A stretch of 64,000 bases of DNA from Deltaproteobacteria bacterium (GTDB taxonomy: Bacteria; Desulfobacterota; Syntrophobacteria; BM002), in contig CP070692.1 in assembly GCA_020353215.1 (NCBI GenBank), forward strand, positions 139-64,138, written 5' to 3'. Positions 7,791-44,776 of this stretch are shown one piece after another. Position numbers and translations under genes: made by a program. The notes beneath the pieces are model-generated. The model did no database searches. It was given only the letters and a program-made list of their open reading frames with translations, and was not told the origin of the DNA. The stretch's first letter is position 1, and each line of letters begins with the position of its first letter.

Positions 7791-9119
7791 TCAAAGATGC
7801 TTTGACAGGGATATTTGGAATATGGTGCCCCGCTCCACGCCAGGAGTCGCCCAAACCATGCCCTGGTGCCGCTCTGCAATCTCTCTTACGATGGCCAACC
7901 CAAGTCCAGCGCCATCGACAGCCTTGGATGCCTCATCCCGCCGAAAGGCCCTGAAAATCCCTTCGTAGTCTCCCCCTCGAATGCCGGCACCGTTGTCGCT
8001 TACGGCAAGGATGTGGTGCTCCTTTGATTGCTCATAAGCAATTCTGATCTCACTCAAGGTGTCTCCGCCGTGTTTCAGTGCGTTTTCTACAAAATTCCTG
8101 AAAACCCGGAGCAGGGACGGCTTGTCCGCCTTGATGCTGCCCGGGGCTTCAGGTTCCAACCACTCGATTTGACGGCTGGTTAATTGAGGAGAGAATTCGT
8201 CTCTAATGACCTTGAAAATCTCTTTAAGGCTAATTTTCTCCAGTTCAAGCGGTGCCTCCTTGGCTGCGATATACACATTGATCTTTTCTACTAGGGCAGC
8301 AACATGTTCGGAAGCCTTCAATATTTGAGCACAGTAGTTGCTGCCCCTTTCGTCGAGACCGTGGCTGTAGTTTCTATGAAGAAGCTCTGTCAGCCCGTAG
8401 ATGGCCGTTGCCGGACTCTTAAGATCGTGTATTACCGAATAGGCGAAAAACCTGAGTTTCTCTGAACTGTTTCGTAAAGCTTGCTCGACAAGTTTTCGCT
8501 CCGCGATCTCAAGCCGCAATTCGTCATTGGCTCTCGCAAGCTCAGCCGTTCGCTCCTCAATGCGAATCTCCAGTTCGTCATGCGCCTGGAGCAACGCCTC
8601 CTCTGCTAGTCTACGCCCATCTATTTCGCGCTTCAGTTGTTCGTTGGCTTGAGTCAGCTCTGTGGTCCGTTCCTCAACTCTCCTTTCCAACTGGTCATGA
8701 GCTTGCTGGAGTGCTTTTTCCGCCTTTTTCCTTTCGTAGTCCAACTTCTTCATGCTGAGGGCGTTTTCTACCGTGGTTAGCAATTCCTCGAGGTCAAAAG
8801 GTTTTCTTAGGTAGTCATAGACACCTTTGCGCAACGATTCTACGACTGAATCTGTTGAAGCATAGCCGGTCATGACAATAATGGAGGTGGTCAGACCTTG
8901 GCCACGAATAAAATCCATGACTTGATCACCTCCCACCTTCGGCATAACCATGTCCAGCAGGATAAGATCGAAGTCACCTTGGGCAACCAATTCAATGGCT
9001 TCTTTGCCACCATTTACTGCAGTTATCTCGTAGCCGCGACCGCTCAAGAATGTCTTCAAGCTATCACACAGCCGGGGTTCATCATCAACAATCAAGACCT
9101 TGGACGTAACCGACATCAT
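7791..9119 (-). CDS. Hybrid response regulator / histidine kinase (REC - duplicated coiled coil - HisKA - HATPase_c)
   Basis: REC motifs VLIVDDE...ILLDMVMP. Two ERTxEL..AN..L..EI coiled-coil repeats. H-box SVIHDLKSP. N/G boxes ENALKHGG, DNGAGI and GAGLGLAIV. Confidence 0.85.
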   Translation of the reverse strand: MMSVTSKVLIVDDEPRLCDSLKTFLSGRGYEITAVNGGKEAIELVAQGDFDLILLDMVMPKVGGDQVMDFIRGQGLTTSIIVMTGYASTDSVVESLRKGVYDYLRKPFDLEELLTTVENALSMKKLDYERKKAEKALQQAHDQLERRVEERTTELTQANEQLKREIDGRRLAEEALLQAHDELEIRIEERTAELARANDELRLEIAERKLVEQALRNSSEKLRFFAYSVIHDLKSPATAIYGLTELLHRNYSHGLDERGSNYCAQILKASEHVAALVEKINVYIAAKEAPLELEKISLKEIFKVIRDEFSPQLTSRQIEWLEPEAPGSIKADKPSLLRVFRNFVENALKHGGDTLSEIRIAYEQSKEHHILAVSDNGAGIRGGDYEGIFRAFRRDEASKAVDGAGLGLAIVREIAERHQGMVWATPGVERGTIFQISLSKHL

Positions 9120-19734: not shown

Positions 19735-20053
19735 GATGAATCCAGTAGTCAGCGATCAGCCATCAGTAGGAGGTGAATCAGTAACTGAGGGAGAACTGTT
19801 TTTGGCTAGTAACTTGTTGAGGGGCTGACCGTTAGCCGAGGTAATCGTTTGCAGCTTGCGACCAGCGACGATGCGTCTGTTCCGGCTTAGTTGAGGCAAC
19901 GGCTTGAACGGAGTAGATGCCCGACAGCCAGGGCGAAAAATCCTTGCCAATAAGTGCATGGCTGTGCTAGTAAAATATAGCTCTGGCAAGTGCCCAAGAC
20001 CCTTAGGGCAGTGGCGACCGGACCGGACAAACGGATTCTGTAACCGAGACAAA

Positions 20054-21262
20054 GTGCCATCGAAACAGACAATAAAGCCCACGCTACCGACGGTCCATGT
20101 TTTCCTTCTAATCGCGTTCCTGTTTCTCATCACTGCTCCTTTTGTGGTTGAAGCCCAGGAAGGAGATTTGGACAGGCCGCTGGTGGCCTCGGGTATCAGT
20201 TCCGCGCTACAACCGGAAAGCGCAGACGCAAGGAGTCTGGCGTTGGAGGAAGCCCTGCGGGCTGCTGTAGAGCAAGCCTTGGGTTGGCTCCTACCGGCAG
20301 AACGCATCGTCAGCTACTATCCGGTCTTGCGTGATCGAATCCTGACCGAACCCATGGCTTACGTCCAGGACTATCAGATAATCCATGAGGATGCAGAGTC
20401 TGGACTGCATCGGGTCACCGTCCAAACCACCCTCTACACCGAAGGGCTGAAGCGAGATCTGCGTCGGCTGGGTCTGTTTCTGGCAGCGAGTGAACGCCCT
20501 CGTGTAGTGGTCTTGGTTGCAGAACGGGCAAGCCCTCAGGCTCAATGGGAGTGGTGGTGGGGTCTTCCTACTTCCGAGGATCGTGAGTTTGCCTTTTCCC
20601 AGGCCCTGATGCAACTTTTGGCGGCAAGGGGACTCATCCCCCTTGACCCCGCAGTCCTGGCAATGAAGATTCCTGCAGATCCAATCTACCAAGCGCCGCT
20701 ACTGGACAATCAGCTGGGCGCAGCTCTGGCACGGCAGTTAGGCGCCGAAGTCGCAGTGCTCGGCCAGGCGAATTTGCAGATTGGGAGTGCCGAGGGAAAG
20801 ACCATGGCCAGCGGGTCACTCCGTGCCCTGCGAGTGGATGACGGTAAGATCCTGGCCAAAGTCTCTGCCGCCCTGGATGTCAATTCTGCCAATGATCAAC
20901 CGCAATCTATAGCTGGATTGGCTGCCTTAGCCGAACGTATGGCACCGCAACTGGTGGACGGGGTTTTGGCCCCATTTACCGCAGTATCCCAACCGCCCAG
21001 GCATGTCACAGTGCAGGTTTTGGGGGTGCGCAGCTACGGAGATCTCATCCAAATCAAGGAGTACCTGCAGCGCGCCCCTGGGGTAGAAGAGATCAGCCAG
21101 ATGCTGCTGCAATCTGGTGCGGGCTCTTTCGGAGTAATTTTGAAGGGAAACCTCAACGGGCTCACGGATGCTTTCGCGGGTCACGACTTCGGCTCTTTCA
21201 CCACCAACGCCAATTTGACAGGCGAAGATCTCGTGACTGTCACGATCATGAGCAAATGGTAG
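20054..21262 (+). CDS. Secreted hypothetical protein (signal peptide; FlgT_N/LPP20-like alpha/beta repeats?)
   Basis: An in-frame GTG at 20054 gives K-rich n-region + LLIAFLFLITAPFVVEA|QE. The longer ORF from 19904 has no signal-peptide logic. No family recognised. Confidence 0.55.
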   Translation: MPSKQTIKPTLPTVHVFLLIAFLFLITAPFVVEAQEGDLDRPLVASGISSALQPESADARSLALEEALRAAVEQALGWLLPAERIVSYYPVLRDRILTEPMAYVQDYQIIHEDAESGLHRVTVQTTLYTEGLKRDLRRLGLFLAASERPRVVVLVAERASPQAQWEWWWGLPTSEDREFAFSQALMQLLAARGLIPLDPAVLAMKIPADPIYQAPLLDNQLGAALARQLGAEVAVLGQANLQIGSAEGKTMASGSLRALRVDDGKILAKVSAALDVNSANDQPQSIAGLAALAERMAPQLVDGVLAPFTAVSQPPRHVTVQVLGVRSYGDLIQIKEYLQRAPGVEEISQMLLQSGAGSFGVILKGNLNGLTDAFAGHDFGSFTTNANLTGEDLVTVTIMSKW

Positions 21263-30016: not shown

Positions 30017-30337
30017 ATGGCGGAGATCATTCCCAATAAGAGGTTTTTTAGAATCGGTGAAGTTAGTCGGATCGTCGGTGTGCCAGCCCATGTGCTGCGC
30101 TATTGGGAACGAGAATTTTCTTTGGTTCGACCTCGGCGTAATCGATCAAAACAACGGTTGTACCGTCGGAGCGATTTAGAAATACTTCTGCACATCAAGA
30201 ATTTGCTCCATCACCAGAAATACACGATCGCCGGAGCGCGGAAGAAACTGAAGCCTGAGACCACCTCCGAATCCCTGGAAAAAACCCTAGAGGAGATCAA
30301 GGGTGAACTCGTGATCCTAAGACGATTGCTGGATTGA
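30017..30337 (+). CDS. MerR-family transcriptional regulator (small, HTH only)
   Basis: FRIGEVSRIVGVPAHVLRYWEREF is a MerR HTH. The start is taken at ATG 30017; the ORF opens at TTG 30011. Confidence 0.8.
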   Translation: MAEIIPNKRFFRIGEVSRIVGVPAHVLRYWEREFSLVRPRRNRSKQRLYRRSDLEILLHIKNLLHHQKYTIAGARKKLKPETTSESLEKTLEEIKGELVILRRLLD

Positions 30338-30916
30338 ATCCACTTTTTCAGCAAGAGACATATGAATCATAAGTCTATGAGTTGCATATCGTTTGTATTC
30401 TAGCCGTCCGGCCTCGATAACAATAAATCTAAATCCTTCATCATCCGTTTGCTCAACTGCAAACTCCAGCTCAAGATCTAAGCTGTTGAGGTGACAACTG
30501 GGCATGACATTGCATGCTTTACGGATGTTGGTCTTGATTTGCCGGATCGCAGGTAATAGTCCCAAATTGGAATATCCCGTTGTCACTGAGGAGTCTTGAG
30601 ACGGAGTCATCTTGAGCTTCACGAGATGTATCGTTCCTTTGGAAAATCCATCTTCTGCTCCTACTTCCAGACCAGCGACTTCAAATCTTACATCGGATTT
30701 CGAGTTCCTGACAGCTACAACGGCTAAATGAAGTTCAAATCTTTCAATTACTATCTTGAAATCCGCTGATTCAACGCCCTGTGCTGCCATAACTTCATCT
30801 TTTACTGCACGCACAATCTCTTCTACACTGAAGGTTAGTCCCTCTGCATAGCCTAGTGAAAGCCCTGAAACAAGGCTCAATACAATCAATGTTAATCCTA
30901 GTTTTACGCGTAACAT
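30317..30916 (-). CDS. Secreted/lipoprotein-like protein with two tandem Trypco2-like domains
   Basis: Signal peptide MLRVKLGLTLIVLSLVSG. Two about 80-aa units each show 'helix - hydrophobic beta pair (FELHLAVVAV / LDLELEFAV) - acidic loop - ...H.VKLKMTP / HRLMIHMS'. The gene is noticeably AT-rich relative to its neighbours (by eye). Confidence 0.5.
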   Translation of the reverse strand: MLRVKLGLTLIVLSLVSGLSLGYAEGLTFSVEEIVRAVKDEVMAAQGVESADFKIVIERFELHLAVVAVRNSKSDVRFEVAGLEVGAEDGFSKGTIHLVKLKMTPSQDSSVTTGYSNLGLLPAIRQIKTNIRKACNVMPSCHLNSLDLELEFAVEQTDDEGFRFIVIEAGRLEYKRYATHRLMIHMSLAEKVDSIQQSS

Positions 30917-31798
30917 AGAATACTCCAATACATTCGCCTGTGGATTGAAGACAGACTATGCTGTTAACTCACGCTAGCACGTTTGTCCTCGATATGGGTC
31001 GGCAACATTAGGTTCTAGTCTCTTCCAAGTCCTTGATTCTAGCTCTCCATGGACAGAGGAGCAATCCGGAGAAAGTATGGTTTTTATCTCATCCGTGAAT
31101 CTGTACGTTCTAGATACGCCCAGATAGGGGTGTTCAAGCACGAGAGTCCTGGCCCCCATTAGTCCCAAAGCGCCTGCTGACACCTGATTTATGGGTGTCC
31201 TGCCGGATGTCCACCTCGCAACCTTCGAGGTACTGGCGAGATAGGCCTCTGATCCGGGGCCCTGCAGTTGGTGGAACGTCCATCCTCACGGTCCCGCGAC
31301 ACCGGTTTGTGGATAGCACGGACCAGCTGACCTCCGCCCCAACTGCGGCTCTGCCGGCTCCTAGCATAGTTGGAGATTACTGAGGTCTGCTTTATATGCA
31401 GCATTAGTTAGAGACTCTAGATCGCACAGGGCAAGTGAGCTTGACCAAGTCAATTACAGACGAGACTGGGAAACTGTATTCTGCTTGCATGTGCTCTTAT
31501 AACCAGCCGTACGATTAGGTTTCGTGATCAGTACAATACTGGCCCCAGTGTGGTCTAACATTTGCATGGATGAGGCAACCGAGACCCAATCAATGAGAAT
31601 CATTACCGTAATACTACAGCACCCAATCTGTGCCTTAGGGCGGTAAATCATTGTATTCATTGCCTTACAGAAAAGTAATTGCATTTTGATTTCAATATTG
31701 CTATAGATACCCATGGCTCGTTTTACTAACGAAATTAAACGTATACGGGCAAAACCATCGCCTTGAGTTATGTTGCGGGCGTAAAGAGCGGGGTGCTT

Positions 31799-32194
31799 AT
31801 GGATCTTGTCTTGTCTAAAGAAGCAATAAACAATATCGTTGGCGTTCTTGATGAAGATCTGCTCAGAGCTGGCGCTGATTGCGCCCTTCTGGTCGACCGC
31901 TCCGGCAACCTCATTGTCACCCGCGGCGATCCAGCCAACCTTGATGTGGTGGCTCTTGCCGCGCTGTCCGCGGCGAATTTCGGCGCAACTTCCGAAATAG
32001 CTAAACTCATTGGCGAAGATGATTTTGCGCTGCTCTTCCACAAAGGGAAGAATGAGAATATCCATTTCACCAAAGTCGGGAAGGGTTTCATTCTGATCAC
32101 CCTTTTTGGCAAGGACGTGTCTCTGGGGTTGATTCGATTGAAGACAGCTAAGGTGACGGACCAGCTAATACCCATTCTGACCGGAGAGCAGTAA
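31799..32194 (+). CDS. mglB: Roadblock/LC7 GTPase-activating protein MglB
   Basis: LLVDRSGNLI...LAALSAANFGATSEIAKLIGEDDF...FH.G...SLGLIRL is colinear with Myxococcus MglB as I remember it. It ends 2 nt before mglA. The start is uncertain (TTG 31763 or ATG 31799). Confidence 0.85.
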   Translation: MDLVLSKEAINNIVGVLDEDLLRAGADCALLVDRSGNLIVTRGDPANLDVVALAALSAANFGATSEIAKLIGEDDFALLFHKGKNENIHFTKVGKGFILITLFGKDVSLGLIRLKTAKVTDQLIPILTGEQ

Positions 32195-32196
32195 CC

Positions 32197-32808
32197 GTGT
32201 CATTTATTGATCTGAGTAAGAACGAAGTACAGTGCAAAGTCGTTTACTACGGTCCTGGACGTGGCGGTAAGACCACGAATCTGCTTTACGTTCACCAGGC
32301 AATGACAGAGGCGGTACGTGGCAAGATGGTCACAATCGACACCAAGGGCGATCGAACGCTCTTTTTTGATTTTCTCCCCTTGGCACTAGGCAAGATTCAG
32401 AACCTTAGCATCAAGATCCAACTTTATACGGTGCCCGGTCAGGTAATGTATAACGCCACTCGCAAACTGGTGCTGAAAGGGGTGGACGGTGTGGTGTTTG
32501 TGGCGGATTCCCTCAAAGTCCAGAAGGAAAAGAACGTTGAGAGCTTAGACAATCTTAGACAGAATCTCGCAGAGGATAACATTGACATTGGGGAGATTCC
32601 GCTTGTCCTTCAGTACAACAAGAGAGACCTGGGAGGTTCCAATATTCCCATCCTGTCCGTGGAGGAGATGGAAGAAGATCTCAACAATAGACTTCAGGTC
32701 CCCTGGTTTACAGGAAGTGCGCTGAAGGGTGACGGTGTGTTTGAGACCTTGAGGGAGATCAGCAAGCGAACCGTGAAACAAGTGAGCCGCAAGCTGCTCT
32801 CCCGTTAG
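32197..32808 (+). CDS. mglA: Ras-like polarity GTPase MglA
   Basis: MSFIDLSKNEVQCKVVYYGPGRGGKTTNL (P-loop), DRTLFFDFLP, LYTVPGQ (MglA-type switch 2), KGVDGVVFVADS, QYNKRDL. It is near-colinear with M. xanthus MglA. Confidence 0.93.
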   Translation: MSFIDLSKNEVQCKVVYYGPGRGGKTTNLLYVHQAMTEAVRGKMVTIDTKGDRTLFFDFLPLALGKIQNLSIKIQLYTVPGQVMYNATRKLVLKGVDGVVFVADSLKVQKEKNVESLDNLRQNLAEDNIDIGEIPLVLQYNKRDLGGSNIPILSVEEMEEDLNNRLQVPWFTGSALKGDGVFETLREISKRTVKQVSRKLLSR

Positions 32809-32836
32809 AAACCACCATTGCCCGGGAGGAGGGTAC

Positions 32837-34882
32837 ATGGATTTAACCGACGACACTCTGGCGAGTGTTGATGCCAGAGAGCTCGAGGCCGACATTGACA
32901 GGGCAATAGACGAACTCTTCGTACAGAAGGGAGGGGCACCGGACCCTGCATCTCTCGAAGAAGAGCCGCCAGAAAAGGCAGAAGAAAAGCCCGCGGAAGA
33001 ATCAACCTTAGACCTGGTAACTGAACCAGCAGTCGAGCTTTTGGCGCCGTTGAAAGAGAGCCTCCTCACTCTGGACTGGGAGATCAGCACCCACAATATC
33101 AGGGCCTTCGAGAAAGAGTTGCAGGTCGTCAGCGAAGACTTCGGTGAAGACCGTCACGGCATGGCAGTGATAAAGATGACCCAGGGGGTCCTTAAATACC
33201 TGCATGCCACCAAGGGTTCGGCTGCGCCCATATCGATCCAGTTTCTTCATGCGGCCACACGTGGCCTTGACCTTTTTCTGCGCGAGCCAGGGGCAGAATC
33301 CAGCGAGCGTGGTCGAGTCATGGAGGAGTTGCTTGGCCAGTTTCGGCGGTTAAAAGCCGAGATCCAGAAGTTGAAGCCGAGGGCGACGCCACCAGCTGAA
33401 GAGGTGGCAGCGGTGCCAGCGGTCGAGCCGGTTGCTCAGCCAGTGACACCGGAGGAGCCAGAGCCGGAACCATCAGTGAAAGAAGAGCTCAGCTTTGAGG
33501 AGCTTCCCGAAGAAAGACCATTGATGGATACACTTCCAGAGCACGAGCCGCTCCTAGAGGAATTCCTCGAGGATGAAGCATTCCCTGAGGAGACGCAAAC
33601 GGAGGACTCGCCATTCGATGACTTTCTCGAAACAGAGCAGTTACTTGAGGGTCTGCCCGAGGAAGAGCCGTTACTTGAGGATCTGCCCGAGGAAGAGCCG
33701 ATCCTTGAACAGGTAGTGGAGGAAGAGTTGGCTAGCGCACCGCTCGGAGGAGAAAAGCCAAAGCTAGACGAACTTCCGGAAGAAGAACCAGTCATAGAGC
33801 TTTCTTTTGAACCGGCGGAAGCGACTCCCGCAGGCGCAACAGCCCGAGTAGAGATTCCAGGGGCATTGCGGCAATTGACCCAGGAAACCAGACGCCACAG
33901 CAAGGAGCTGTCCACTGCGCTGGCGGCACTTACTCAAGAAACCGGCAATTTCTTTGGCCATCTGATGCAGACAGTCGCAGGCAAACCGGGTCTTGAGAAA
34001 CTTGAGAGTCTCTTTGGCAATGTCGAGAAAACCCTGGGAGAAAAGCTGACCAATGCACAGGCGCTTTCTGGGAATCTGGACGCAGCAGTAAGGAAACTGG
34101 AGCAGAGTTTGGGCCAATTGCAGGAAGGAGCTATTGCTCCAGGTTCGCAGGCTGTCATGAAGTCAGAAGTGGAGAGAATCCAGCAGGCGGTCCAGATTTT
34201 GACTAAGGTGGCGTCAAGACTGAAACAGAACCCGAGCGATATAGACGCCGAACAGGTACCGAACTCAGAGGATGCAAACCCTGATAGTCGGATTGACACC
34301 CCTGAGTTCAGCGTGGACTCATTGGAGTCCGAAGAAGCTAAAGAGACATTCACTCTCGAGCTGACAGACCAGTTGCCACCAGAGCCGAGTGGCGCTGCAC
34401 CGCCGTCACTGGACGCGATTTACCTCGCCAATGTCGCGGCCAGTACTTTGGGCCTTCCTACAGACAGGGTCGCGAATGTCTTCAAGATCTCAAAGGGAAA
34501 GGCGAAGGCTTTGCGCAAGAGAGGGTACGCAAGGTTGACCGACTTCAAAGCGGCGTTCCGCAGCCTCAAGCGAGGCATGACGGGCCCACTCGCCGACCAA
34601 GAGGTCAAGTCATTGAAAAGAATAAGATTTCCTCTGGTCACTCTCAGTCCGGAAACCTTGGGTAGCCATGGCATCAAAGCGACGGGCTCCGCCAGAGGTA
34701 TCGTCCTGTTCAGTACCGGCGAGCGTCACGGCGCCTTGTTTACTGATGAAGTCATGCAAAGGATACCTTACGATGTGATGAGCTACAGAGAAGCTGGCCT
34801 CTCCGGAGAAGTGAGCGGTACGGCGATCATTGAAGGAGACTTTGAGATAAGTGTGATTGATCCGGACTACGTGATCCAATAG
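32837..34882 (+). CDS. Acidic scaffold protein: Hpt-like N-domain - Glu/Pro-rich repeats - coiled coil - CheW-like C-domain (no kinase core)
   Basis: The Hpt-like helix VLKYLHATKGSAAPISIQFLHAATRGLDLFL has its His at 33203-33205. LPEEEPLLEDLPEEEPILE repeats follow. The C-terminal 157 aa (34409-34879) carry a CheW-like pattern (GIVLFSTGERHGALFTDEVMQ...GTAIIEGDFEISVIDPDYV). No HATPase motifs are present. Confidence 0.65.
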   Translation: MDLTDDTLASVDARELEADIDRAIDELFVQKGGAPDPASLEEEPPEKAEEKPAEESTLDLVTEPAVELLAPLKESLLTLDWEISTHNIRAFEKELQVVSEDFGEDRHGMAVIKMTQGVLKYLHATKGSAAPISIQFLHAATRGLDLFLREPGAESSERGRVMEELLGQFRRLKAEIQKLKPRATPPAEEVAAVPAVEPVAQPVTPEEPEPEPSVKEELSFEELPEERPLMDTLPEHEPLLEEFLEDEAFPEETQTEDSPFDDFLETEQLLEGLPEEEPLLEDLPEEEPILEQVVEEELASAPLGGEKPKLDELPEEEPVIELSFEPAEATPAGATARVEIPGALRQLTQETRRHSKELSTALAALTQETGNFFGHLMQTVAGKPGLEKLESLFGNVEKTLGEKLTNAQALSGNLDAAVRKLEQSLGQLQEGAIAPGSQAVMKSEVERIQQAVQILTKVASRLKQNPSDIDAEQVPNSEDANPDSRIDTPEFSVDSLESEEAKETFTLELTDQLPPEPSGAAPPSLDAIYLANVAASTLGLPTDRVANVFKISKGKAKALRKRGYARLTDFKAAFRSLKRGMTGPLADQEVKSLKRIRFPLVTLSPETLGSHGIKATGSARGIVLFSTGERHGALFTDEVMQRIPYDVMSYREAGLSGEVSGTAIIEGDFEISVIDPDYVIQ

Positions 34883-34952
34883 ACCTCCAACGGCCGAGTT
34901 GGTCGGCCTCCTCCCTTGCGAGCCGGGTTGTTACTAGGGGTCGTCTCTGACC

Positions 34953-37208
34953 ATGCAATCGGAAAACGCTAACCAGCCAATCTCTAGTGACCTGTCTCAG
35001 ATCCAAGGGAAGATCGAGGAGGCCGAACTTTACTTAACTCAAGGACTCTTCGAAGAAGCCCGCCAAATCTACCAGAACCTTCTGGACCACATTGGTCCTT
35101 CGAGTCAAGAAGCTGGAATCAATACTTCCGCCCATCACGCCGGCGAAATGCAGCGCTCATTCATTAAAGAACAATTGGCGCTCATTGACCGTCAGGAGGC
35201 AGACTTTCTCGGAAAACCTCCAAGAGCCGAACCAGAAAAGCCAGCCGTCCCAGGAAAAGAAGGAGCTGCCCTCTTCAATCGAGGCTGGGCACTTCTGGAC
35301 ATCGGGATTTTCGCCGATGCGATCCAACAGTTTCATAGTGCCGCCAGGCTGAATTATCGGCCGGTTGAATGCCTGATGGAAATCGGCAAGGCACACATTC
35401 AACTCGGTCAACATAAGAAGGGAATCAAAGTGCTTGAAGAGGCCTCACGGCGCAAGGACATTAGTGCCGAGGACCGCGACCGCTTGTTGGGGCAGATGGC
35501 AAGAGCCTATGAAGCAGCGGCTGACAAGAAAAGAGCCCTTGAGCTTTATCGTCAGTTGGCTGTGCGGGATCCGTATGACGAGGAGGCAGCGAGCAAAGTC
35601 CAAAGCTTGAGGGAGGAAGGCCATCGATATCAACTCAATATGGCAAAGGTTCATCTGCAAAATGGACAGTTTCCGAAAGCAATCGAGACGCTGCGCTCTT
35701 TGCAGCAGAAGAAGGAGGCTCCAGGGCAGAAGCTAGTGCCTGTGTATGAGCAAATCATGCAACAAGATCCGAGTAATCTCGACGCGGTGATGGATCTGGT
35801 CGAAATTTGTAAAAATCAAGGTAACTTGCTACAGGCCAGCCAGTATCTGGAAAGAGTTCAAGAAGCCCGCCCACAGGACGGTTGGTGCCAGCAACAGCTC
35901 ACAGACATTTATACGATGATGCTCGACAGCGGCGCGGCCGGCCCCAACATCCGACTCAAGCTCGCCGGTCACCTTCTCCGATCTGACCAATTGGCCCGGG
36001 CCCTAGAAGAGTATCTGGAGGTGATGCTGGAGGACGGTGCTTACAAGATGGCCGCTTTGAACCAGTTGGGAGAGGCACTGCTGGAGCGCCAAGACTACGA
36101 TCGCCTTCTGGAGATATTGGGAGATGCGTGTCCATGGGTGGAGTCCACCGAGGAAGGAGCTGACGCCCTAAATTATTACTACCTATTGGGGATCGCCTGT
36201 GAAAAGAAACACTTCTACGATCAAGCTCAGGCTTACTTTCAGCGCGCCGTTTCCATTGATCCAGACCACAAGGGAGTACGCGCAAAAGTAGAAAACCAGT
36301 CCAAAGGACCGCTTATTTCCCATGGCAAGTCTTTCCTCCCTGTCCGGTTGCCCGAGAGCCTGGAGTACCAGATACAGGAGGACCTTGGACAAGACGAGAT
36401 TCACCAGGTTTTCAAAGTCCGCGAGGTCCCCGGGGGAGACTTTCGGTTGGCGAAAACCCTTTTGCACAATCATTCTGGGTCAGGCAAAATCAAAAATTTT
36501 GTTGCCCAATGGGCTTACCAACAGGTAACCATGGAAAACCGGAATATCATCCAGGTGTTGGACGTGGCTGGACGGGAGGGGCAGTTCTATATAATAACGG
36601 AAGATCTCCCGGGCAGCCTGGAGGAGTTGCTTAAAGAAAAGACACACTTGCCTTTGGCCGCGGCGGTTTGCATGGCGAGAGGTCTGCTCAACGCCCTCGC
36701 ATATGCCCATTCTCATAGAGGCACCGACGATACCTTGAGGAAAATCTTTCATCTCGCCCTGAATCCAAAACGGGTGTTCATCAGCGCCGATGGCGTAGTT
36801 CCGAAGATTGCCGATTTCGGCTTAACCCTCATGCTGGAGAAACAGCTAGGTTGGGCCCCCAACTACCAGGATCTAGCACCGTTCCAGCTGCAGTACCTGG
36901 CACCGGAACAGTTTGACCGCGTTCCTTCACGGATGCCTGATAAGATGAAACAAGCCGCAGATCTGTATACCTTTGGGGTATTATTCTACCAGATGGTCAC
37001 TGGGAAGGTGCCCTTCGAAGGGCCATCACCTGATGACTTCAAGACCCAGCATGCTGAACGATATCCGGTGCCGCCACGAGTGTTTATTTCTAGCATTCCC
37101 GCTAAACTGGATGAAGCCATCCTCAAATGCCTCCACAAAGATCCGAAGAAGCGGTGGCGCACGCCAACTGAACTAGATCTAGCCCTAGAGAAGATCCACC
37201 TGGGCTGA
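34953..37208 (+). CDS. TPR-repeat protein fused to a degenerate Ser/Thr protein-kinase (pseudokinase) domain
   Basis: About 450 aa of TPR-like helices come first, then a kinase fold. LAKTL stands in for VAIK, HLALNPKRV replaces HRDLKPxN, and ADFG, YLAPEQ, DLYTFGVLFYQMVTG and KRWRTP are retained. Confidence 0.8.
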   Translation: MQSENANQPISSDLSQIQGKIEEAELYLTQGLFEEARQIYQNLLDHIGPSSQEAGINTSAHHAGEMQRSFIKEQLALIDRQEADFLGKPPRAEPEKPAVPGKEGAALFNRGWALLDIGIFADAIQQFHSAARLNYRPVECLMEIGKAHIQLGQHKKGIKVLEEASRRKDISAEDRDRLLGQMARAYEAAADKKRALELYRQLAVRDPYDEEAASKVQSLREEGHRYQLNMAKVHLQNGQFPKAIETLRSLQQKKEAPGQKLVPVYEQIMQQDPSNLDAVMDLVEICKNQGNLLQASQYLERVQEARPQDGWCQQQLTDIYTMMLDSGAAGPNIRLKLAGHLLRSDQLARALEEYLEVMLEDGAYKMAALNQLGEALLERQDYDRLLEILGDACPWVESTEEGADALNYYYLLGIACEKKHFYDQAQAYFQRAVSIDPDHKGVRAKVENQSKGPLISHGKSFLPVRLPESLEYQIQEDLGQDEIHQVFKVREVPGGDFRLAKTLLHNHSGSGKIKNFVAQWAYQQVTMENRNIIQVLDVAGREGQFYIITEDLPGSLEELLKEKTHLPLAAAVCMARGLLNALAYAHSHRGTDDTLRKIFHLALNPKRVFISADGVVPKIADFGLTLMLEKQLGWAPNYQDLAPFQLQYLAPEQFDRVPSRMPDKMKQAADLYTFGVLFYQMVTGKVPFEGPSPDDFKTQHAERYPVPPRVFISSIPAKLDEAILKCLHKDPKKRWRTPTELDLALEKIHLG

Positions 37209-37320
37209 TAGCCTAGCGGTATTATTCACCAGACGCCTAGTTCAACCACAGATATGAGCATCATTCCTGGCGTCCTCGGGCCTCAGACCCTGTGACGTAC
37301 TGTGGAAGTAGGTCACGCGT

Positions 37321-37425
37321 TCCCGCGGGATTGGACGGTGACAAGCCTATCTTCTTTGCGCTCTTTCCGCTCCGCTTGAGTCTCCACCCCTTTAGGGCGG
37401 ATCCCCGAGTACACGGTATCGTGAC
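37321..37425 (+). repeat. Dispersed intergenic repeat, copy B
   Basis: Aligns over its full length with 17598-17704. It lies between the convergent TPR-pseudokinase and PATAN genes. Confidence 0.7.
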
Positions 37426-37531
37426 GCCATTTGGTGAATGATTCGGACGAAGTGTCATTGCAGGCAGCTGCTGGGAATTGGCCAAAACCGTCGACTACCA
37501 GCAACTGACAACCGAATCCACGGATAAAGGG

Positions 37532-38761
37532 CTATTTTCTTTTGAGGAAGGAAAGGATACCCCCAGCCTTCTCTTTGCCGCCGACTGCTTGGAGGGCTTC
37601 CTGTTGAAACTGTTCCACGGTTTGATTGATGGCGCTGAGAATTGTCCCTTTGAGCTGGGGCTTTACAGGGAGTTTTTGCCAGGCGGCGCCTGGCTTTATC
37701 AAGGCCTGGATGCTCGCCGTCATCTCCTTCTCATTAAGCACCTCTGTCTGCTTGTGCAGGATTACAAGGATCCAGGCATTGAAAGAGTTGAGAATTGCCT
37801 CCTTACCAGGGGCAGAATCAGCTGCTGACTGAAGCATCCTGTGAATGTTGGTCTTGGCGTCTTTCGAGCAATCGTAGGTTCGCAGCAGTTCCAGTTGGTG
37901 GTCTGGCAACTGATTTTTCGCCTCTTGCAGCAGGGGGAGGGCTTGTGTGCCCACCGCCTTTTCCGAGATCTTCCGCATATTCTGCAGCACTTCATGATAA
38001 ATCTGGATGATGATGGAAGACTCGTTCCGGTCCCCCGGGGCGGCTGTGGGGCCGGACTCGCTCTTCTCGATTATGCCGGAGGAGATCAAAGAGTTGATCA
38101 CGCGGTAGACAACAAACTCGTCGTGCCCGCTGTCAACGATGATCTGCTGGACCGACCTTTTCCCGTCCACGAGTGAAATAACACGCCATTCGTTGGCGGT
38201 GAGGTTGACCGAGCTTTTCTGTTGCTCCACACTTCTGTTAATTTTGAAAACGACTTGGGGGTGTGGAATATTCTTCTTGAGAATGGCCCATTCATCTACT
38301 CGACGAGTGCCCTCCAGAATAATCTCCATGTGATTTAGCTCGGTACTAAATTCTGCGTCCACACTGATCTCCTGGTCCACATACTCAAAATCGCCCTGTG
38401 GCCACAAGAACAAGTCATAGAGAATGTCCCGTACCTGCTGATGAAGGAATTTTTTTAACGTGTCTAACGATATATAACCCTTTTCCACCAGGATCTTCCC
38501 AAGTCGCTCTTGCTTGTGTTTAGCTAGAGTCAGCGCTTTTTGGAGTTCCTGAGCCGAGATGATACCTTTGGCGCGCAGTAGGTAACCAAGCCTTACCTCC
38601 TTCTGGTTTCCAACTGCGTGGATGATACTGCCATTCTTGAAGTAGACCTTCGCCAATCGCCCCTTTTCAGCGATGGTGAGAATCCCTGTTTTCTTATCTC
38701 CGGAGAGTAGCTGAAGGATGCTGGCGAGATTGAAGGTCTCAATGTTGCCCTTCAGTGACAT
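37532..38761 (-). CDS. PATAN (DUF4388) domain protein with inserted MshEN/T2SSE_N-type c-di-GMP-binding motifs
   Basis: The N-terminus GNIETFNLASILQLLSGDKKTGILTI...VYFKNGSIIHA is DUF4388-like. Residues 57-109 read RLGYLLRAKGIISAQELQKALTLA-KHKQE-RLGKILVEKGYISLDTLKKFLHQQ. The PATAN second half follows (DILYDLFLWPQGDFEY). Confidence 0.8.
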   Translation of the reverse strand: MSLKGNIETFNLASILQLLSGDKKTGILTIAEKGRLAKVYFKNGSIIHAVGNQKEVRLGYLLRAKGIISAQELQKALTLAKHKQERLGKILVEKGYISLDTLKKFLHQQVRDILYDLFLWPQGDFEYVDQEISVDAEFSTELNHMEIILEGTRRVDEWAILKKNIPHPQVVFKINRSVEQQKSSVNLTANEWRVISLVDGKRSVQQIIVDSGHDEFVVYRVINSLISSGIIEKSESGPTAAPGDRNESSIIIQIYHEVLQNMRKISEKAVGTQALPLLQEAKNQLPDHQLELLRTYDCSKDAKTNIHRMLQSAADSAPGKEAILNSFNAWILVILHKQTEVLNEKEMTASIQALIKPGAAWQKLPVKPQLKGTILSAINQTVEQFQQEALQAVGGKEKAGGILSFLKRK

Positions 38762-42177: not shown

Positions 42178-43617
42178 ATGCCAGCTGATCGTGAACTCAC
42201 CGATATCACTGCGCTGTTGAGTAACTGTCTTGATGCATTTACCGCTGCTCTGTTTGTCTGGGACGATCGCAAAAGACTCCTAACCATGAGGGCATTTCAT
42301 AGTCTGAGCAAGCAAATTATTCCCAACGTACAGTTCACCCCAGAAGATGGAGGTCTGGTAGGGTGGGTAGCTAAGAGCAAGCAGCCGCTTGCCATCGACC
42401 ACTTTGATCGCCGCAATAAGACCATTCCTTACTACCACAAAGATGAAAACATCAAGTCTTTCTTGGCTACGCCTTTGGGAAAAAGCGGAGGCGTGCTGTG
42501 TGTAGACAGTAAACGCCAGTATGTCTTTACCAATAAGGATCAGAAGCTTCTTTCCGGCTTTGCGACTGTGGTGTCCAACACACTCAGTGGGGAACGGACG
42601 AACCGCCGTCAGCAACTTATGCGCCAGTTGATGACCTTGTGGTATCGTGCTGACCCCTTGCCAGCCGACTCGGATGATCCGGTACCTTATCTCACCCGTC
42701 TTCTGGACTCTGCTCGGCCGTACTTACGAGCCGATGCCGGCTTAGTTGCGGTGCCCATCAAGGAAGGGAAATTTCTGCAATTAGTTGCCACGTCCGGGGA
42801 AGTTCCAGAGCATTTGCTGAACAGGGCCCAACCGACACACCAAGGAATCGCCGGCTGGATCTTCCAGAACCGCAAGTCCCTTGTTGTTCCCAAGTTCAGA
42901 TCCCGCACTCGAATTCCTTTCCTTTTCGGTCCGTCGGACGGCATGGGGAAGATAGGCGCCCTGATCGGTATGCCCCTAGCCTGGGAAGCAGATGAGGTGG
43001 GGGGAGTGATTTGTTTCATCCGCCGTGCGGAGGCTAGTTGGAACAGAGAAGAGATAGATGCCATAACTTCTGTAGTTAGACGGGCCACCCTGGTCCTACA
43101 GAACTTCAGTCTCCGACGCGAACTGGCCATAGTTCGCAATTTAGATCCGATCACCGAGGTGTGCAACGCCTATGCCTTCGACCGGGTTCTCAACAAGAGA
43201 CTCCAAGGCTGCCTAGATGCCAGTGTCACCCTTGGCCTCGGCATCATCACCATCGAGGGACTCGAGGCTTTGAGCACTAAGGTAGCGCTGTCAGATATGG
43301 CTGTCTTGCGCCAACGTGTCGCGGCAATCCTGCTTCAGCGGATGAAAGGCAAACAACTAATGGGCTCTCTCGATCCTGGGCGCTTTGCCGTTCTATTTGA
43401 GGATGAAACTTCGGGAGAAATCAGAGCGCAGCTCACAGACATGACGAGAGCCGTAAATCGGGAACTCCTGGAACGGCTGGAGGAGCCAGCACCAATGCAT
43501 GCGTTTTTCGGCTTTGCGCTGTATCCTCGAGACGCAACTGTATCGCGTGAACTGTGGACCGTGGCTTTTCAGGCGCTGAACACCCGAAGAAACAGTGTCT
43601 CTCTTGGCGCAACTTGA
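42178..43617 (+). CDS. GAF-GAF-degenerate GGDEF domain protein (catalytically inactive)
   Basis: Two GAF-like domains are followed by a GGDEF fold. DPGRF replaces GGDEF and TIEGLE replaces DxDxFK. No RxxD I-site lies 5 residues upstream. Confidence 0.75.
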   Translation: MPADRELTDITALLSNCLDAFTAALFVWDDRKRLLTMRAFHSLSKQIIPNVQFTPEDGGLVGWVAKSKQPLAIDHFDRRNKTIPYYHKDENIKSFLATPLGKSGGVLCVDSKRQYVFTNKDQKLLSGFATVVSNTLSGERTNRRQQLMRQLMTLWYRADPLPADSDDPVPYLTRLLDSARPYLRADAGLVAVPIKEGKFLQLVATSGEVPEHLLNRAQPTHQGIAGWIFQNRKSLVVPKFRSRTRIPFLFGPSDGMGKIGALIGMPLAWEADEVGGVICFIRRAEASWNREEIDAITSVVRRATLVLQNFSLRRELAIVRNLDPITEVCNAYAFDRVLNKRLQGCLDASVTLGLGIITIEGLEALSTKVALSDMAVLRQRVAAILLQRMKGKQLMGSLDPGRFAVLFEDETSGEIRAQLTDMTRAVNRELLERLEEPAPMHAFFGFALYPRDATVSRELWTVAFQALNTRRNSVSLGAT

Positions 43618-43747: not shown

Positions 43748-44776
43748 ATGAGACTTTTGGATATACTTTCTGGTTTCTTTGCCAAAGACATGGCTATGGA
43801 TCTGGGTACAGCAAACACCCTCATCTATGTGAAAGGGGAGGGGATTGTGCTCAATGAGCCTTCGGTGGTGGCCCTCAGCCGCAACACTGGAAGGGTTATA
43901 GCGGTGGGTCGTGAGGCCAAGGAGTATCTTGGCCGTACGCCGCAGAAGATCATGGCCATTCGTCCCATGAAAGATGGAGTGATCGCCGATTTTGAAGTGA
44001 CCAGTGTTATGATCACCTACTTTCTTAACAAAGTATACAAGCGCACTTTTCTTTTCCGACCACGGCTTGTCGTCGCAGTGCCCAGTGGCATAACACAGGT
44101 GGAAAAACGAGCAGTTATTGACGCAGCAGAACAGGCTGGCGCACGCCGTGTGCACCTAATCGAAGAACCCATGGCCGCCGCTATTGGTATTGGCCTTCCC
44201 ATCAGCGAGCCCATGGGTAACATGGTGGTCGATATAGGAGGCGGTACCACTGAGGTTGCGGTGATTTCGCTGTCAGCTGTGGCCCATGCTGAGTCGGTGC
44301 GAGTGGCGGGAGATGAGGCCGATCAGGCCATAATTCGGTACATTCAGCAGCATCACCAAATCGCGATCGGTGAAAACGAGGCTGAACGGATAAAGCTGGC
44401 TATCGGTTCGGCCTGCCCACTCGATGAACCGATGACTCTGGAGGTGGCGGGTAAAGAAATCCTTACGGGCATACCCAGATCCTTCCGGGTTCATGATCAG
44501 GAGATCAGACGCGCCCTGAGGGAACCGGTTAATGTGATCATCGAAAGCGTCAAGCGCGCTTTCGAACGGACGCCGCCTGAACTGGCAACGGATATCTCTG
44601 ACAACGGCGTATGGTTGGCAGGCGGTGGCGCGCTTCTCAAGAGATTGGACGTCCTACTGAGTGACATACTGCAGCTCCCGGTTAAGGTGGACCCGGATCC
44701 TCTTACTGCAGTGACCCGTGGCGCGGGTCAGGTGATGGAATCTATAGGTGATTTCAGGCAGGTTTTCATCAACTGA
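43748..44776 (+). CDS. mreB: Rod-shape-determining actin homologue MreB
   Basis: DMAMDLGTANTLIYV, EPSVVA, IEEPMAAAIG, VVDIGGGTTEVAV. No mreC/mreD lies downstream. Confidence 0.95.
   Translation: MRLLDILSGFFAKDMAMDLGTANTLIYVKGEGIVLNEPSVVALSRNTGRVIAVGREAKEYLGRTPQKIMAIRPMKDGVIADFEVTSVMITYFLNKVYKRTFLFRPRLVVAVPSGITQVEKRAVIDAAEQAGARRVHLIEEPMAAAIGIGLPISEPMGNMVVDIGGGTTEVAVISLSAVAHAESVRVAGDEADQAIIRYIQQHHQIAIGENEAERIKLAIGSACPLDEPMTLEVAGKEILTGIPRSFRVHDQEIRRALREPVNVIIESVKRAFERTPPELATDISDNGVWLAGGGALLKRLDVLLSDILQLPVKVDPDPLTAVTRGAGQVMESIGDFRQVFIN

Follow-up and report, generated by a model that had tools for sequence, protein, structure and literature searches.

The small GTPase MglA and its partner MglB are the model of bacterial small-GTPase polarity, and, to our knowledge, nearly everything known about their mechanism comes from Myxococcus, with a little from Bdellovibrio and Thermus. 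Here, we describe a different set of MglA partners that is encoded in a 64,000-nucleotide (nt) stretch of contig CP070692.1 (assembly GCA_020353215.1) from a deltaproteobacterium of the Desulfobacterota, in the following referred to as the window. The set consists of mglB, mglA, a gene for a protein of 681 amino acids (aa) that we call the scaffold, a gene for a 751-aa protein combining tetratricopeptide repeats (TPRs) with a degenerate kinase domain (the TPR-pseudokinase), and a gene for a 409-aa PATAN (DUF4388) protein. These five genes are a conserved functional cassette and not simply an inherited gene order. In our view there is about an even chance that the cassette is a conserved MglA-centred polarity module of Syntrophobacter-like Desulfobacterota, in which the scaffold would tether MglA, the TPR-pseudokinase would act as an adaptor and the PATAN protein would pass the output on to pili.

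The cassette in relation to described systems

The best-studied polarity module is that of Myxococcus, which comprises MglA, MglB, RomR/RomX, RomY and MglC as well as the effectors SgmX, FrzS and SopA. SgmX is a known TPR effector of MglA. The cassette shares with this module an orthologous MglA, a Roadblock-type MglB encoded just upstream of mglA, TPR-containing partner proteins and, as proposed below, the docking of an acidic helix on the alpha5 pocket of MglA. However, the MglB of the cassette lacks the C-terminal helix, and the partners encoded in cis are the CheW-like scaffold, the pseudokinase and the PATAN protein. As far as they were compared, these partners show no homology to RomR, RomX, RomY or SopA and contain no receiver domain. 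Moreover, no gene for RomR or RomX lies within the 64-kb window, and neither RomX (8ZNA) nor any other known MglA-partner fold is among the 50 fold matches listed.

A second MglA hub, consisting of MglA, the TPR protein Bd2492, RomR and CdgA, has been described in Bdellovibrio (PMC3983030). In both systems, a TPR protein is present, which in Bdellovibrio binds MglA, and sensing of cyclic di-GMP (c-di-GMP) is attached. In contrast to the cassette, Bdellovibrio has no MglB, Bd2492 has no kinase domain, c-di-GMP is received by a degenerate GGDEF protein rather than a PATAN/MshEN protein, and the genes of the hub are not clustered with mglA.

Kinases have also been connected with MglA before. M. 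xanthus MasK, which is encoded beside mglBA, binds MglA, and masABK affects type IV pili (PMC3546991). Like the cassette, the MasABK system thus places a Hanks-type kinase-fold protein beside mglBA, and genetic as well as physical links connect MasK with MglA and type IV pili. However, the kinase domain of MasK is N-terminal, retains HRD, DFG and the beta3 Lys and precedes a long C-terminal region, whereas in the cassette protein the TPRs come first and the dead kinase forms the C-terminal part. Furthermore, MasK is reported to be membrane-associated (PMC3546991), and masABK is transcribed divergently from mglBA. The idea that masABK and the cassette are the same system was rejected, since the scaffold profile matches neither MasA nor MasB of Corallococcus and the architecture of MasK differs. 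An earlier note on this DNA, which had been made from the sequence alone, stated that no MglA partner with either the Hpt plus CheW or the TPR-pseudokinase architecture was known. No description of this partner set was found in the literature, but the coupling of a kinase to MglA does have a precedent in MasK, albeit one of non-homologous architecture (PMC3546991).

Two further groups of systems share single components with the cassette. The cyanobacterial PatA-type regulators PixE and PixG contain a PATAN domain, and the output of PixE goes to the PilB/PilC motor. The PATAN protein of the cassette differs from them in lacking a receiver domain and in being combined with an MshEN insert or with pentapeptide repeats. 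The actinobacterial conservons (CvnA-D; MfpA-E) are, like the cassette, conserved multi-gene sets with an MglA-like GTPase and a Roadblock protein at their centre, together with signalling partners, and a pentapeptide-repeat protein is associated with the Mfp conservon. However, their GTPases belong to another MglA group, their partner is an active histidine kinase instead of a Hanks-type pseudokinase, and they have no CheW-like or PATAN component.

Conservation of the cassette

In the clade to which the window belongs (the window clade), the order mglB-mglA-scaffold-pseudokinase was found in all 21 genome loci with coverage, and the wider arrangement at the 21 genome loci reads pheT-merR-mglB-mglA-scaffold-pseudokinase-<PATAN-<miaA-<mutL. 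The PATAN gene is located just past the pseudokinase gene in most of those loci that have enough downstream flank, and the two are 2.6-5 kb apart in three loci. This synteny alone proves little because housekeeping genes are conserved there too. A distant set was therefore of greater value, which comprises 33 distinct loci with 24-34% identity in the CheW-like domain of the scaffold and which was fetched individually and by a metagenome scan. Upstream of the scaffold gene, MglB is encoded in 25 of the 25 distant loci with enough flank and MglA in 25 of 27. The pseudokinase gene follows downstream in 21 of 24 loci, and a PATAN gene is nearby in 16 of 21, usually immediately upstream of mglB and on the same strand.

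The flanks vary among these distant loci and include a pseudopilin and a thiolase gene (locus L030) or proS and relA. One distant locus encodes an MglA that is identical to ABK16019.1 from the cultured bacterium Syntrophobacter fumaroxidans MPOB; here, ABC transporter and queuosine salvage genes lie on one side and an FMN reductase gene on the other. The other named carriers are metagenome-assembled genomes assigned to Syntrophobacteraceae, Syntrophobacterales or 'Deltaproteobacteria'. Since the same gene set recurs in distant loci with unrelated flanks, the five genes constitute a functional cassette. The conservation of the neighbourhood well beyond this genome, which the earlier note had named as a check, was thus confirmed.

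A variant of the locus has also been observed (L033 and L041; 8.5-20 kb), in which mglA is missing between a Roadblock gene and the directly following gene for a scaffold homologue of 1039 aa. The neighbouring genes encode a receiver-GGDEF protein, two MshEN+T2SSE (PilB/MshE-like) ATPases, a PilZ protein and a two-component pair, and a second mglB-mglA pair is located 8 kb off.

The scaffold ends in a CheW-like domain

The scaffold belongs to a family without annotation. All of its 161 close homologues are named 'hypothetical', as is the window protein itself, and searching exhaustively with the last 167 residues yielded 86 cluster representatives at 50% identity. Pfam and NCBIfam scans of the 681-aa protein gave nothing above threshold; there was only sub-threshold coiled-coil noise, including sub-threshold coiled-coil Pfam matches in the long-helix region (residues 342-463). 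Searching the PDB sequences with phmmer and with the family profile revealed nothing relevant, and neither CheW nor Hpt was found. In a first AlphaFold model, which was computed for the full-length protein with 40 close homologues, the C-terminal domain remained unfolded (pLDDT ~30), and Foldseek with this model returned no significant match.

The picture changed when the C-terminal domain was refolded alone with 90 diverse sequences. The resulting AlphaFold model (pLDDT 88.9, pTM 0.83) has the two-subdomain beta-barrel of the CheW/CheA-P5 fold, and the best 18 PDB matches in Foldseek are all CheA-P5 or CheW (probability 0.99-1.00; E 1.6e-5 to 2e-2), followed by a clean gap to E >= 1. Moreover, CheW is the only Pfam family matching more than two of 74 relatives; it matches 8 of the 74, with a best E-value of 3.2e-4. 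These matches are weak, and the window protein, which had no match, stays below the Pfam gathering threshold for CheW (PF01584). A comparison by hhalign with a hand-typed CheA-P5 sequence gave 9.9% probability, hand-typed queries having little power. The model thus predicts that the 681-aa protein ends in a real but divergent CheW-like fold, and the CheW-like end proposed in the earlier note stands on model and fold search, although the window protein stays below the Pfam threshold. The fold is shared with the CheW/CheA-P5 adaptors, and a stretch of the type 'RG...D[LF][KR]xxF' can be likened by eye to E. coli CheW. However, the scaffold domain differs from these adaptors in its Pfam score below gathering level, its low structural overlap (TM ~0.5) and a helical insert, and it is fused to a long N-terminal part that is not derived from CheA. 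Furthermore, no MCP, CheA or CheY gene is present in the cassette.

Several side observations concern the middle part of the scaffold. The gene carries a 30-nt tandem repeat (33634-33708; 2.5 copies, 91% match) that encodes decapeptides of the EEPLLEDLPE type. The lengths of scaffold homologues rise in steps of 10 aa (686, 696, 706, 716 ... 796), which indicates that the copy number of the decapeptide repeat varies between strains. The helical bundle near the N-terminus, which we refer to as the 'LDWE' domain, is also found in stand-alone proteins of ~205 aa, in which it is fused to a C-terminal winged helix and the acidic N-terminal motif is absent. In the five loci that were fetched (L022-L026), the gene for the bundle and winged helix-turn-helix protein always adjoins a gene for an FHA plus cNMP-binding protein; an example of such a stand-alone gene is found in L024 at 8001-8642.

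MglA, MglB and the acidic motif of the scaffold

The MglA of the window aligns with the solved M. xanthus MglA (PDB 6hjh) with an E-value of 7e-62 across residues 1-196. It has the motifs GPGRGGKT, DRTLFFDF, YTVPGQ and YNKRD, and thus the Thr of TVPGQ, the NKxD element and the intrinsic Arg of switch I. The MglB is recognised by Pfam Robl_LC7 (9e-12) and by the NCBIfam MglB model (9e-16, which is below the cut-off of that model), and its gene ends just before mglA. Both proteins had been named correctly in the earlier note on the basis of the TVPGQ and NKRD motifs and the Roadblock/LC7 domain. The MglB departs from the Myxococcus type at its C-terminus. There are 17 residues after the LGLIRL motif in the window protein versus 43 in Corallococcus MglB, and the tails of all cassette MglBs extend 14-27 residues past the Roadblock core and are non-acidic. 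The acidic C-terminal helix that docks on alpha5 of MglA is therefore absent from the window MglB. As judged by their sequences, MglA and MglB are orthodox apart from this loss.

In M. xanthus, the C-terminal helix of MglB (Ct-helix; residues 147-157) binds the alpha5/beta2-beta3 pocket of MglA through K181, K185, L64 and I67. The helix retains MglB on MglA-GDP and promotes nucleotide exchange (PMC6785124, PMC13408092). The MglA residues touching the Ct-helix, including the basic alpha5 residues, co-evolve with the helix (PMC6785124). In the MglA of the window, K181 and K185 correspond to Arg and Lys, and positions 64 and 67 are occupied by Leu and Ile. Arg and Lys together with hydrophobic residues at 64/67 were found in all 26 distinct cassette MglAs.

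A candidate replacement for the missing helix is present in the scaffold. The best-conserved feature of this family is its N-terminus, where ELEADIDRAIDELF is invariant in 40 close homologues. The family-wide motif D[FL]xAFExQIDxEIDSLFVP occurs in 45 of 74 representatives, mostly at residues 20-25, and ELEADIDRAIDELF and FEMQIDKEIDSLFVP are two versions of the same acidic-motif peptide. The resemblance to MglB came to light when the scaffold profile aligned the N-terminal motif to the C-terminus of Corallococcus MglB (FAEISDDDIDNLF), with a score that was not significant. The family consensus F-x3-[IV]D-x-[EA]-ID-x-LF was set against FAEISDDDIDNLF, and the open reading frames (ORFs) in all six frames of the window and loci L001-L035 (373,229 residues) were scanned. 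The motif D.[DE][IVL]D.[LIVM]F had seven matches, which are two MglB C-termini and five scaffold N-termini, and none elsewhere; a stricter form, F....D.[DE]ID.LF, had six. Scaffolds contain between one and six copies of the acidic motif. At least two copies are present in 36 of 129 distinct family members, in which they are regularly spaced, and the scaffold of S. fumaroxidans has three. Such a repeated pattern is typical of multivalent docking arrays.

A transfer of the Ct-helix from MglB to the scaffold would fit the motif scan, the short MglB tails and the retained MglA residues. Carried further, the scaffold family might represent a new class of MglA regulators or scaffolds, which present one to six MglB-helix mimics in trans to the alpha5 pocket, so that the GTPase-activating function of MglB is split from its retention or exchange function, and which link MglA, by way of the CheW-like domain and TPR-pseudokinase, to pilus motors under PATAN control, independently of RomR/RomX. 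We regard this extended reading as tentative and as possible rather than probable.

The TPR-pseudokinase

The N-terminal part of the 751-aa protein matches TPR_14, TPR_19, TPR_2, TPR_8, TPR_16 and TPR_12 above their cut-offs, best within residues 109-439. A kinase fold is indicated by the matches to Pkinase (5e-25, residues 472-736) and StkP (2.7e-19). The window protein has no Gly-rich loop, the alphaC Glu is replaced by Trp, HRD by HLA and the catalytic-loop Asn by Arg; the beta3 Lys, DFG and APE are retained. When 37 distinct orthologues were aligned to the intact Corallococcus MasK, all 37 were found to have Trp in place of the alphaC Glu and Arg, Lys or Gln in place of the catalytic-loop Asn. 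None has a Gly-rich loop, APE is present in all 37, and the C-lobe is conserved throughout. Pseudokinases of the window clade keep the beta3 Lys and DFG and have HL[A/G] for HRD, whereas those of the Syntrophobacter type keep HLD, have lost the beta3 Lys and have NGG or YGG for DFG. All 37 orthologues are thus degenerate and differ from active Hanks-type kinases. Judging from these residues, phosphotransfer by the canonical mechanism should be impossible, and the TPR plus degenerate-kinase architecture given in the earlier note proved to be right. Since the pseudokinase family is long-lived, binding or allostery is presumably what has been conserved as its function. A further signature of the family was noticed at residues ~570-590 (36660-36720). 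Just before the catalytic loop, all orthologues contain an insert of the type H-x-H-x-G-x-D-x(3-4)-R-K-[IL]-[FY]-H that is not present in the MasK and StkP references.

The PATAN protein

Neighbourhoods of PATAN and mglB genes were reportedly noted by Makarova in 2006 and Wuichet in 2014. Indeed, mglA and mglB are known to have PATAN genes as neighbours (PMC4316618). The PATAN protein of the window matches the full DUF4388 profile (PF14332) at residues 4-159 (1e-35). Inside this domain, residues 57-109 match NF053729, a model for the MshE-related c-di-GMP motif, with an E-value of 3.7e-14, which is above the cut-off of the model. The published MshEN pattern consists of two RLGxx(L/V/I)(L/V/I)xxG(L/V/I)(L/V/I)xxxxLxxxLxxQ motifs with a 5-residue spacer (PMC5013675). 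Motif 2 of the PATAN protein (residues 86-109) follows this pattern strictly, motif 1 (residues 57-80) contains two deviations, and the spacer has the canonical length of five residues. The protein thus carries an MshEN-type receptor motif by sequence, and c-di-GMP binding is predicted. Both parts of the PATAN and MshEN assignment of the earlier note were borne out by the two profiles, but the c-di-GMP input that the note attached to the module as a whole holds only for the window clade. In Syntrophobacter-type cassettes, the PATAN partner is a fusion of pentapeptide repeats and PATAN without the MshEN insert, and the c-di-GMP-sensing form of the partner is specific to the window clade.

The pentapeptide-PATAN fusion, the repeats of which are HetL-like, is located upstream of mglB in loci L034, L036, L037, L040, L043-L051, L054 and L055 as well as in L057, L059, L061 and L064-L066. 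Pentapeptide proteins also accompany pairs of MglA-like and Roadblock proteins in the mycobacterial mfp conservon (MfpA/MfpB/MfpD), which suggests that pentapeptide repeats are recurrently linked to small GTPases.

Proposed mode of action

We infer all interactions within the cassette from the sequences and models described above. MglB, as the GTPase-activating protein, and MglA would form the switch. The N-terminal motif of the scaffold may dock to the alpha5/beta2-beta3 pocket of MglA, thereby tethering MglA and possibly tuning its nucleotide state. By analogy with SgmX and Bd2492, the TPR-pseudokinase could be a non-catalytic adaptor or an effector of MglA-GTP. The scaffold would assemble with it via the CheW-like domain and the coiled coil, and the CheW-like domain might couple the complex to a partner lattice, which could be either the pseudokinase or an array of the chemoreceptor type. 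The PATAN protein would then relay the output to the PilB/PilC motor of type IV pili in the way of PixE, the PATAN domain of which binds PilB1 and PilC in Synechocystis (bioRxiv 10.1101/2021.06.11.447907). The gate of this relay may be c-di-GMP in the window clade and the pentapeptide-repeat domain in the Syntrophobacter type.

The scaffold probably steers type IV pili. A pseudopilin gene is directly upstream of the cassette in L030, and the L033 variant is accompanied by two genes for MshEN-type pilus ATPases and by one PilZ and one GGDEF gene. Moreover, pilus genes of S. fumaroxidans are co-expressed early in co-culture with an MglA gene, possibly the one in the cassette (PMC10787695).

Several points weigh against this mode of action. 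The pseudokinase and PATAN genes are frequent in the cassettes and not universal, and a promoter and terminator scan gave the same result as shuffled sequence, so that it does not settle the operon structure. With TM ~0.5 and rmsd ~6 A relative to its PDB matches and with its helical insert, the CheW-like domain is divergent and may have lost receptor or CheA binding. The match between the acidic motif and the MglB helix is short (13 residues), and IDRAIDELF of the window clade fits the helix less well than IDKEIDSLF of the Syntrophobacter type. Finally, the CheY-docking peptides of FliM (LSQAEIDALL) and CheZ resemble the E-I-D-x-L-F core of the motif.

Alternative explanations

It is extremely improbable that the gene order is a relic of one narrow clade without functional meaning. 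The synteny of pheT, miaA and mutL in the window clade and the insertions between the pseudokinase and PATAN genes of three loci would agree with this, but the distant relatives retain this gene set in no fewer than four distinct genomic settings, and their PATAN gene differs in both position and architecture. The Hpt/CheW scaffold of the earlier note can be read as a kinase-less derivative of CheA with a (degenerate) Hpt domain at its N-terminus and signalling of the phosphotransfer type, a reading to which we attach little probability. The order of helical bundle and CheW-like domain does parallel P1...P5 of CheA, Pfam Hpt (PF01627) matches residues 115-173 of the window protein weakly (E = 0.32), and CheA P1 appears at rank 16 (E = 1.9) in a fold search of the bundle, which returned generic helical bundles with a best E-value of 0.8. 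However, the Hpt match is seen in the window protein alone, the profile search of the PDB revealed no Hpt, and hhalign against four hand-typed Hpt sequences, a test of little power, gave at most 3% probability, as did the cytochrome b562 control. In addition, no His is conserved family-wide, as judged from the 74 distant relatives. The His of HATKGS (H123), which is unique to this genome, is Arg in 38 of the 40 close homologues, and in the distant relatives (window protein excepted) a His occupies position 123 in 0/74, position 107 in 9/74 and position 138 in 6/74. Thus, neither a conserved phospho-accepting His nor significant profile or fold similarity to Hpt domains was found, the Hpt-like end was not upheld, and a phosphotransfer role of the N-domain is largely refuted already. 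For the differently wired polarity module of the earlier note, this means that the five conserved genes, the pseudokinase, the CheW-like end and the MshEN insert remain, while the Hpt half falls and the c-di-GMP input becomes a feature of one clade.

If the EIDxLF motifs docked CheY-like receivers and the CheW-like domain joined a chemoreceptor array, MglA and MglB would instead be wired to a Che-type pathway. The CheW-like fold, the likeness of the motif core E-I-D-x-L-[FL] to the FliM N-terminus (LSQxEIDALL), the one to six motif copies, which would suit the recruitment of diffusible regulators, and the receiver-domain genes adjoining variant L033 are all in line with such an adaptor. We nevertheless consider it rather unlikely, because the strict motif F....D.[DE]ID.LF shares with the MglB helix an upstream Phe and Asp and a terminal Phe that FliM does not have, no receiver-domain gene is among the conserved members of the cassette, and the cassette MglBs lack the acidic helix, yet their MglAs retain the docking residues. 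A similarly low probability is given to an output other than pili, which could be adhesion to or aggregation with syntrophic partners, placement of the envelope or division site, or gene regulation like that of the Cvn/Mfp conservons. In Streptomyces and Mycobacterium, MglA-like GTPases and Roadblock partners do regulate processes other than motility (PMC4316618, PMC9769811). Moreover, pentapeptide repeats turn up both in the mfp conservon and in the Syntrophobacter-type PATAN protein, the window clade and L027 have a merR-family gene 5' of mglB, and mreB is found 5 kb downstream. On the other hand, the MglA is close to the MglA of motility over residues 1-196, the pilus motor is the sole PATAN output that has been shown experimentally, and some variants are flanked by pilus-related genes. 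The MglA-centred module with an output to pili therefore remains the reading that we prefer.

Gene layout and neighbouring genes

The positions of the genes and domains are given in Table 1. The gene positions, gap sizes, motifs and orientation of all five genes in the earlier note match the ORF map exactly. For mglB, the ATG at 31799 was chosen over a TTG upstream at 31763, and the homologues likewise begin with MDLV.... An ORF of 203 aa on the minus strand (31454-32065) was judged to be spurious because it overlaps with the conserved mglB.

Table 1. Genes and domains of the cassette in the window
Feature	Position	Strand	Remarks
mglB	31799..32194	+	131 aa, Robl_LC7; ATG start
mglA	32197..32808	+	203 aa, Ras-like polarity GTPase; GTG start, 2 nt after mglB
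Scaffold gene	32837..34882	+	681 aa; 28 nt after mglA; no Pfam family above threshold
N-terminal acidic helix ELEADIDRAIDELF	32873..32920	+	residues 13-28; AlphaFold-predicted helix
Helical bundle ('LDWE' domain)	33044..33373	+	residues 70-179; pLDDT 85-92
Disordered acidic Pro/Glu-rich region	33377..33853	+	residues 181-339; pLDDT ~32; EEPxLE decapeptide repeats
Long-helix/coiled-coil region	33860..34225	+	residues 342-463; three long helices, pLDDT 57-86 (block means)
Divergent CheW-like domain (predicted)	34415..34879	+	residues 527-681; refolded alone, Foldseek
TPR-pseudokinase gene	34953..37208	+	751 aa; 70 nt after scaffold gene
Pseudokinase domain	36366..37196	+	residues 472-748; compared with StkP and MasK references
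PATAN (DUF4388) gene	37532..38761	-	409 aa; convergent on operon; carries MshEN-type insert
Tandem 24+5+24-residue MshEN motif	38435..38593	-	residues 57-109, inside PATAN domain

The cassette of the window is surrounded by housekeeping genes upstream (thrS, pheS, pheT and a small merR-family gene) and by miaA, mutL, a gene for a GAF protein and mreB downstream. The spacer between merR and mglB is ~190 nt in most relatives versus 1.46 kb in the window (30317-31798), where it contains a minus-strand ORF with a Trypco2 domain (30317-30928) and ~830-870 nt without an ORF. Rfam and tRNA scans of this ~830-870-nt stretch 5' of mglB gave no match. At the same spacer, 3.9-4.9 kb are inserted in loci L010, L016 and L021, so that it resembles an insertion hot spot. 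The C-terminal third of the GAF-domain protein (42178-43617) resembles a degenerate GGDEF domain by eye and has no Pfam GGDEF match. The mreB gene (43748-44776) follows, and both genes are syntenic in the close clade. The combination of GAF/degenerate GGDEF and mreB recalls CdgA of the Bdellovibrio MglA hub and the link between MglA and MreB in Myxococcus, and it may be plain synteny. Farther upstream, a 452-aa ORF on the plus strand (19904-21262), which is located between recJ and the tRNA-Val/thrS region, had no Pfam match at E <= 1e-4.

Implications

The cassette would represent a second, compact and conserved wiring of MglA and MglB, with all partners encoded in cis, in syntrophic propionate oxidisers, which are ecologically important. 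Two protein families are newly defined by it, an unannotated one with a CheW-like domain outside chemotaxis operons and a pseudokinase family that has been kept across long distances. If the acidic motif of the scaffold does bind MglA, this would bear on the debate whether the Ct-helix of MglB has an exchange-factor or a retention activity (PMC6785124, PMC13408092), and it would mean that the Ct-helix has been separated from the GTPase-activating protein in nature. Since the cassette is present in the cultured and sequenced bacterium S. fumaroxidans MPOB, these ideas are testable.

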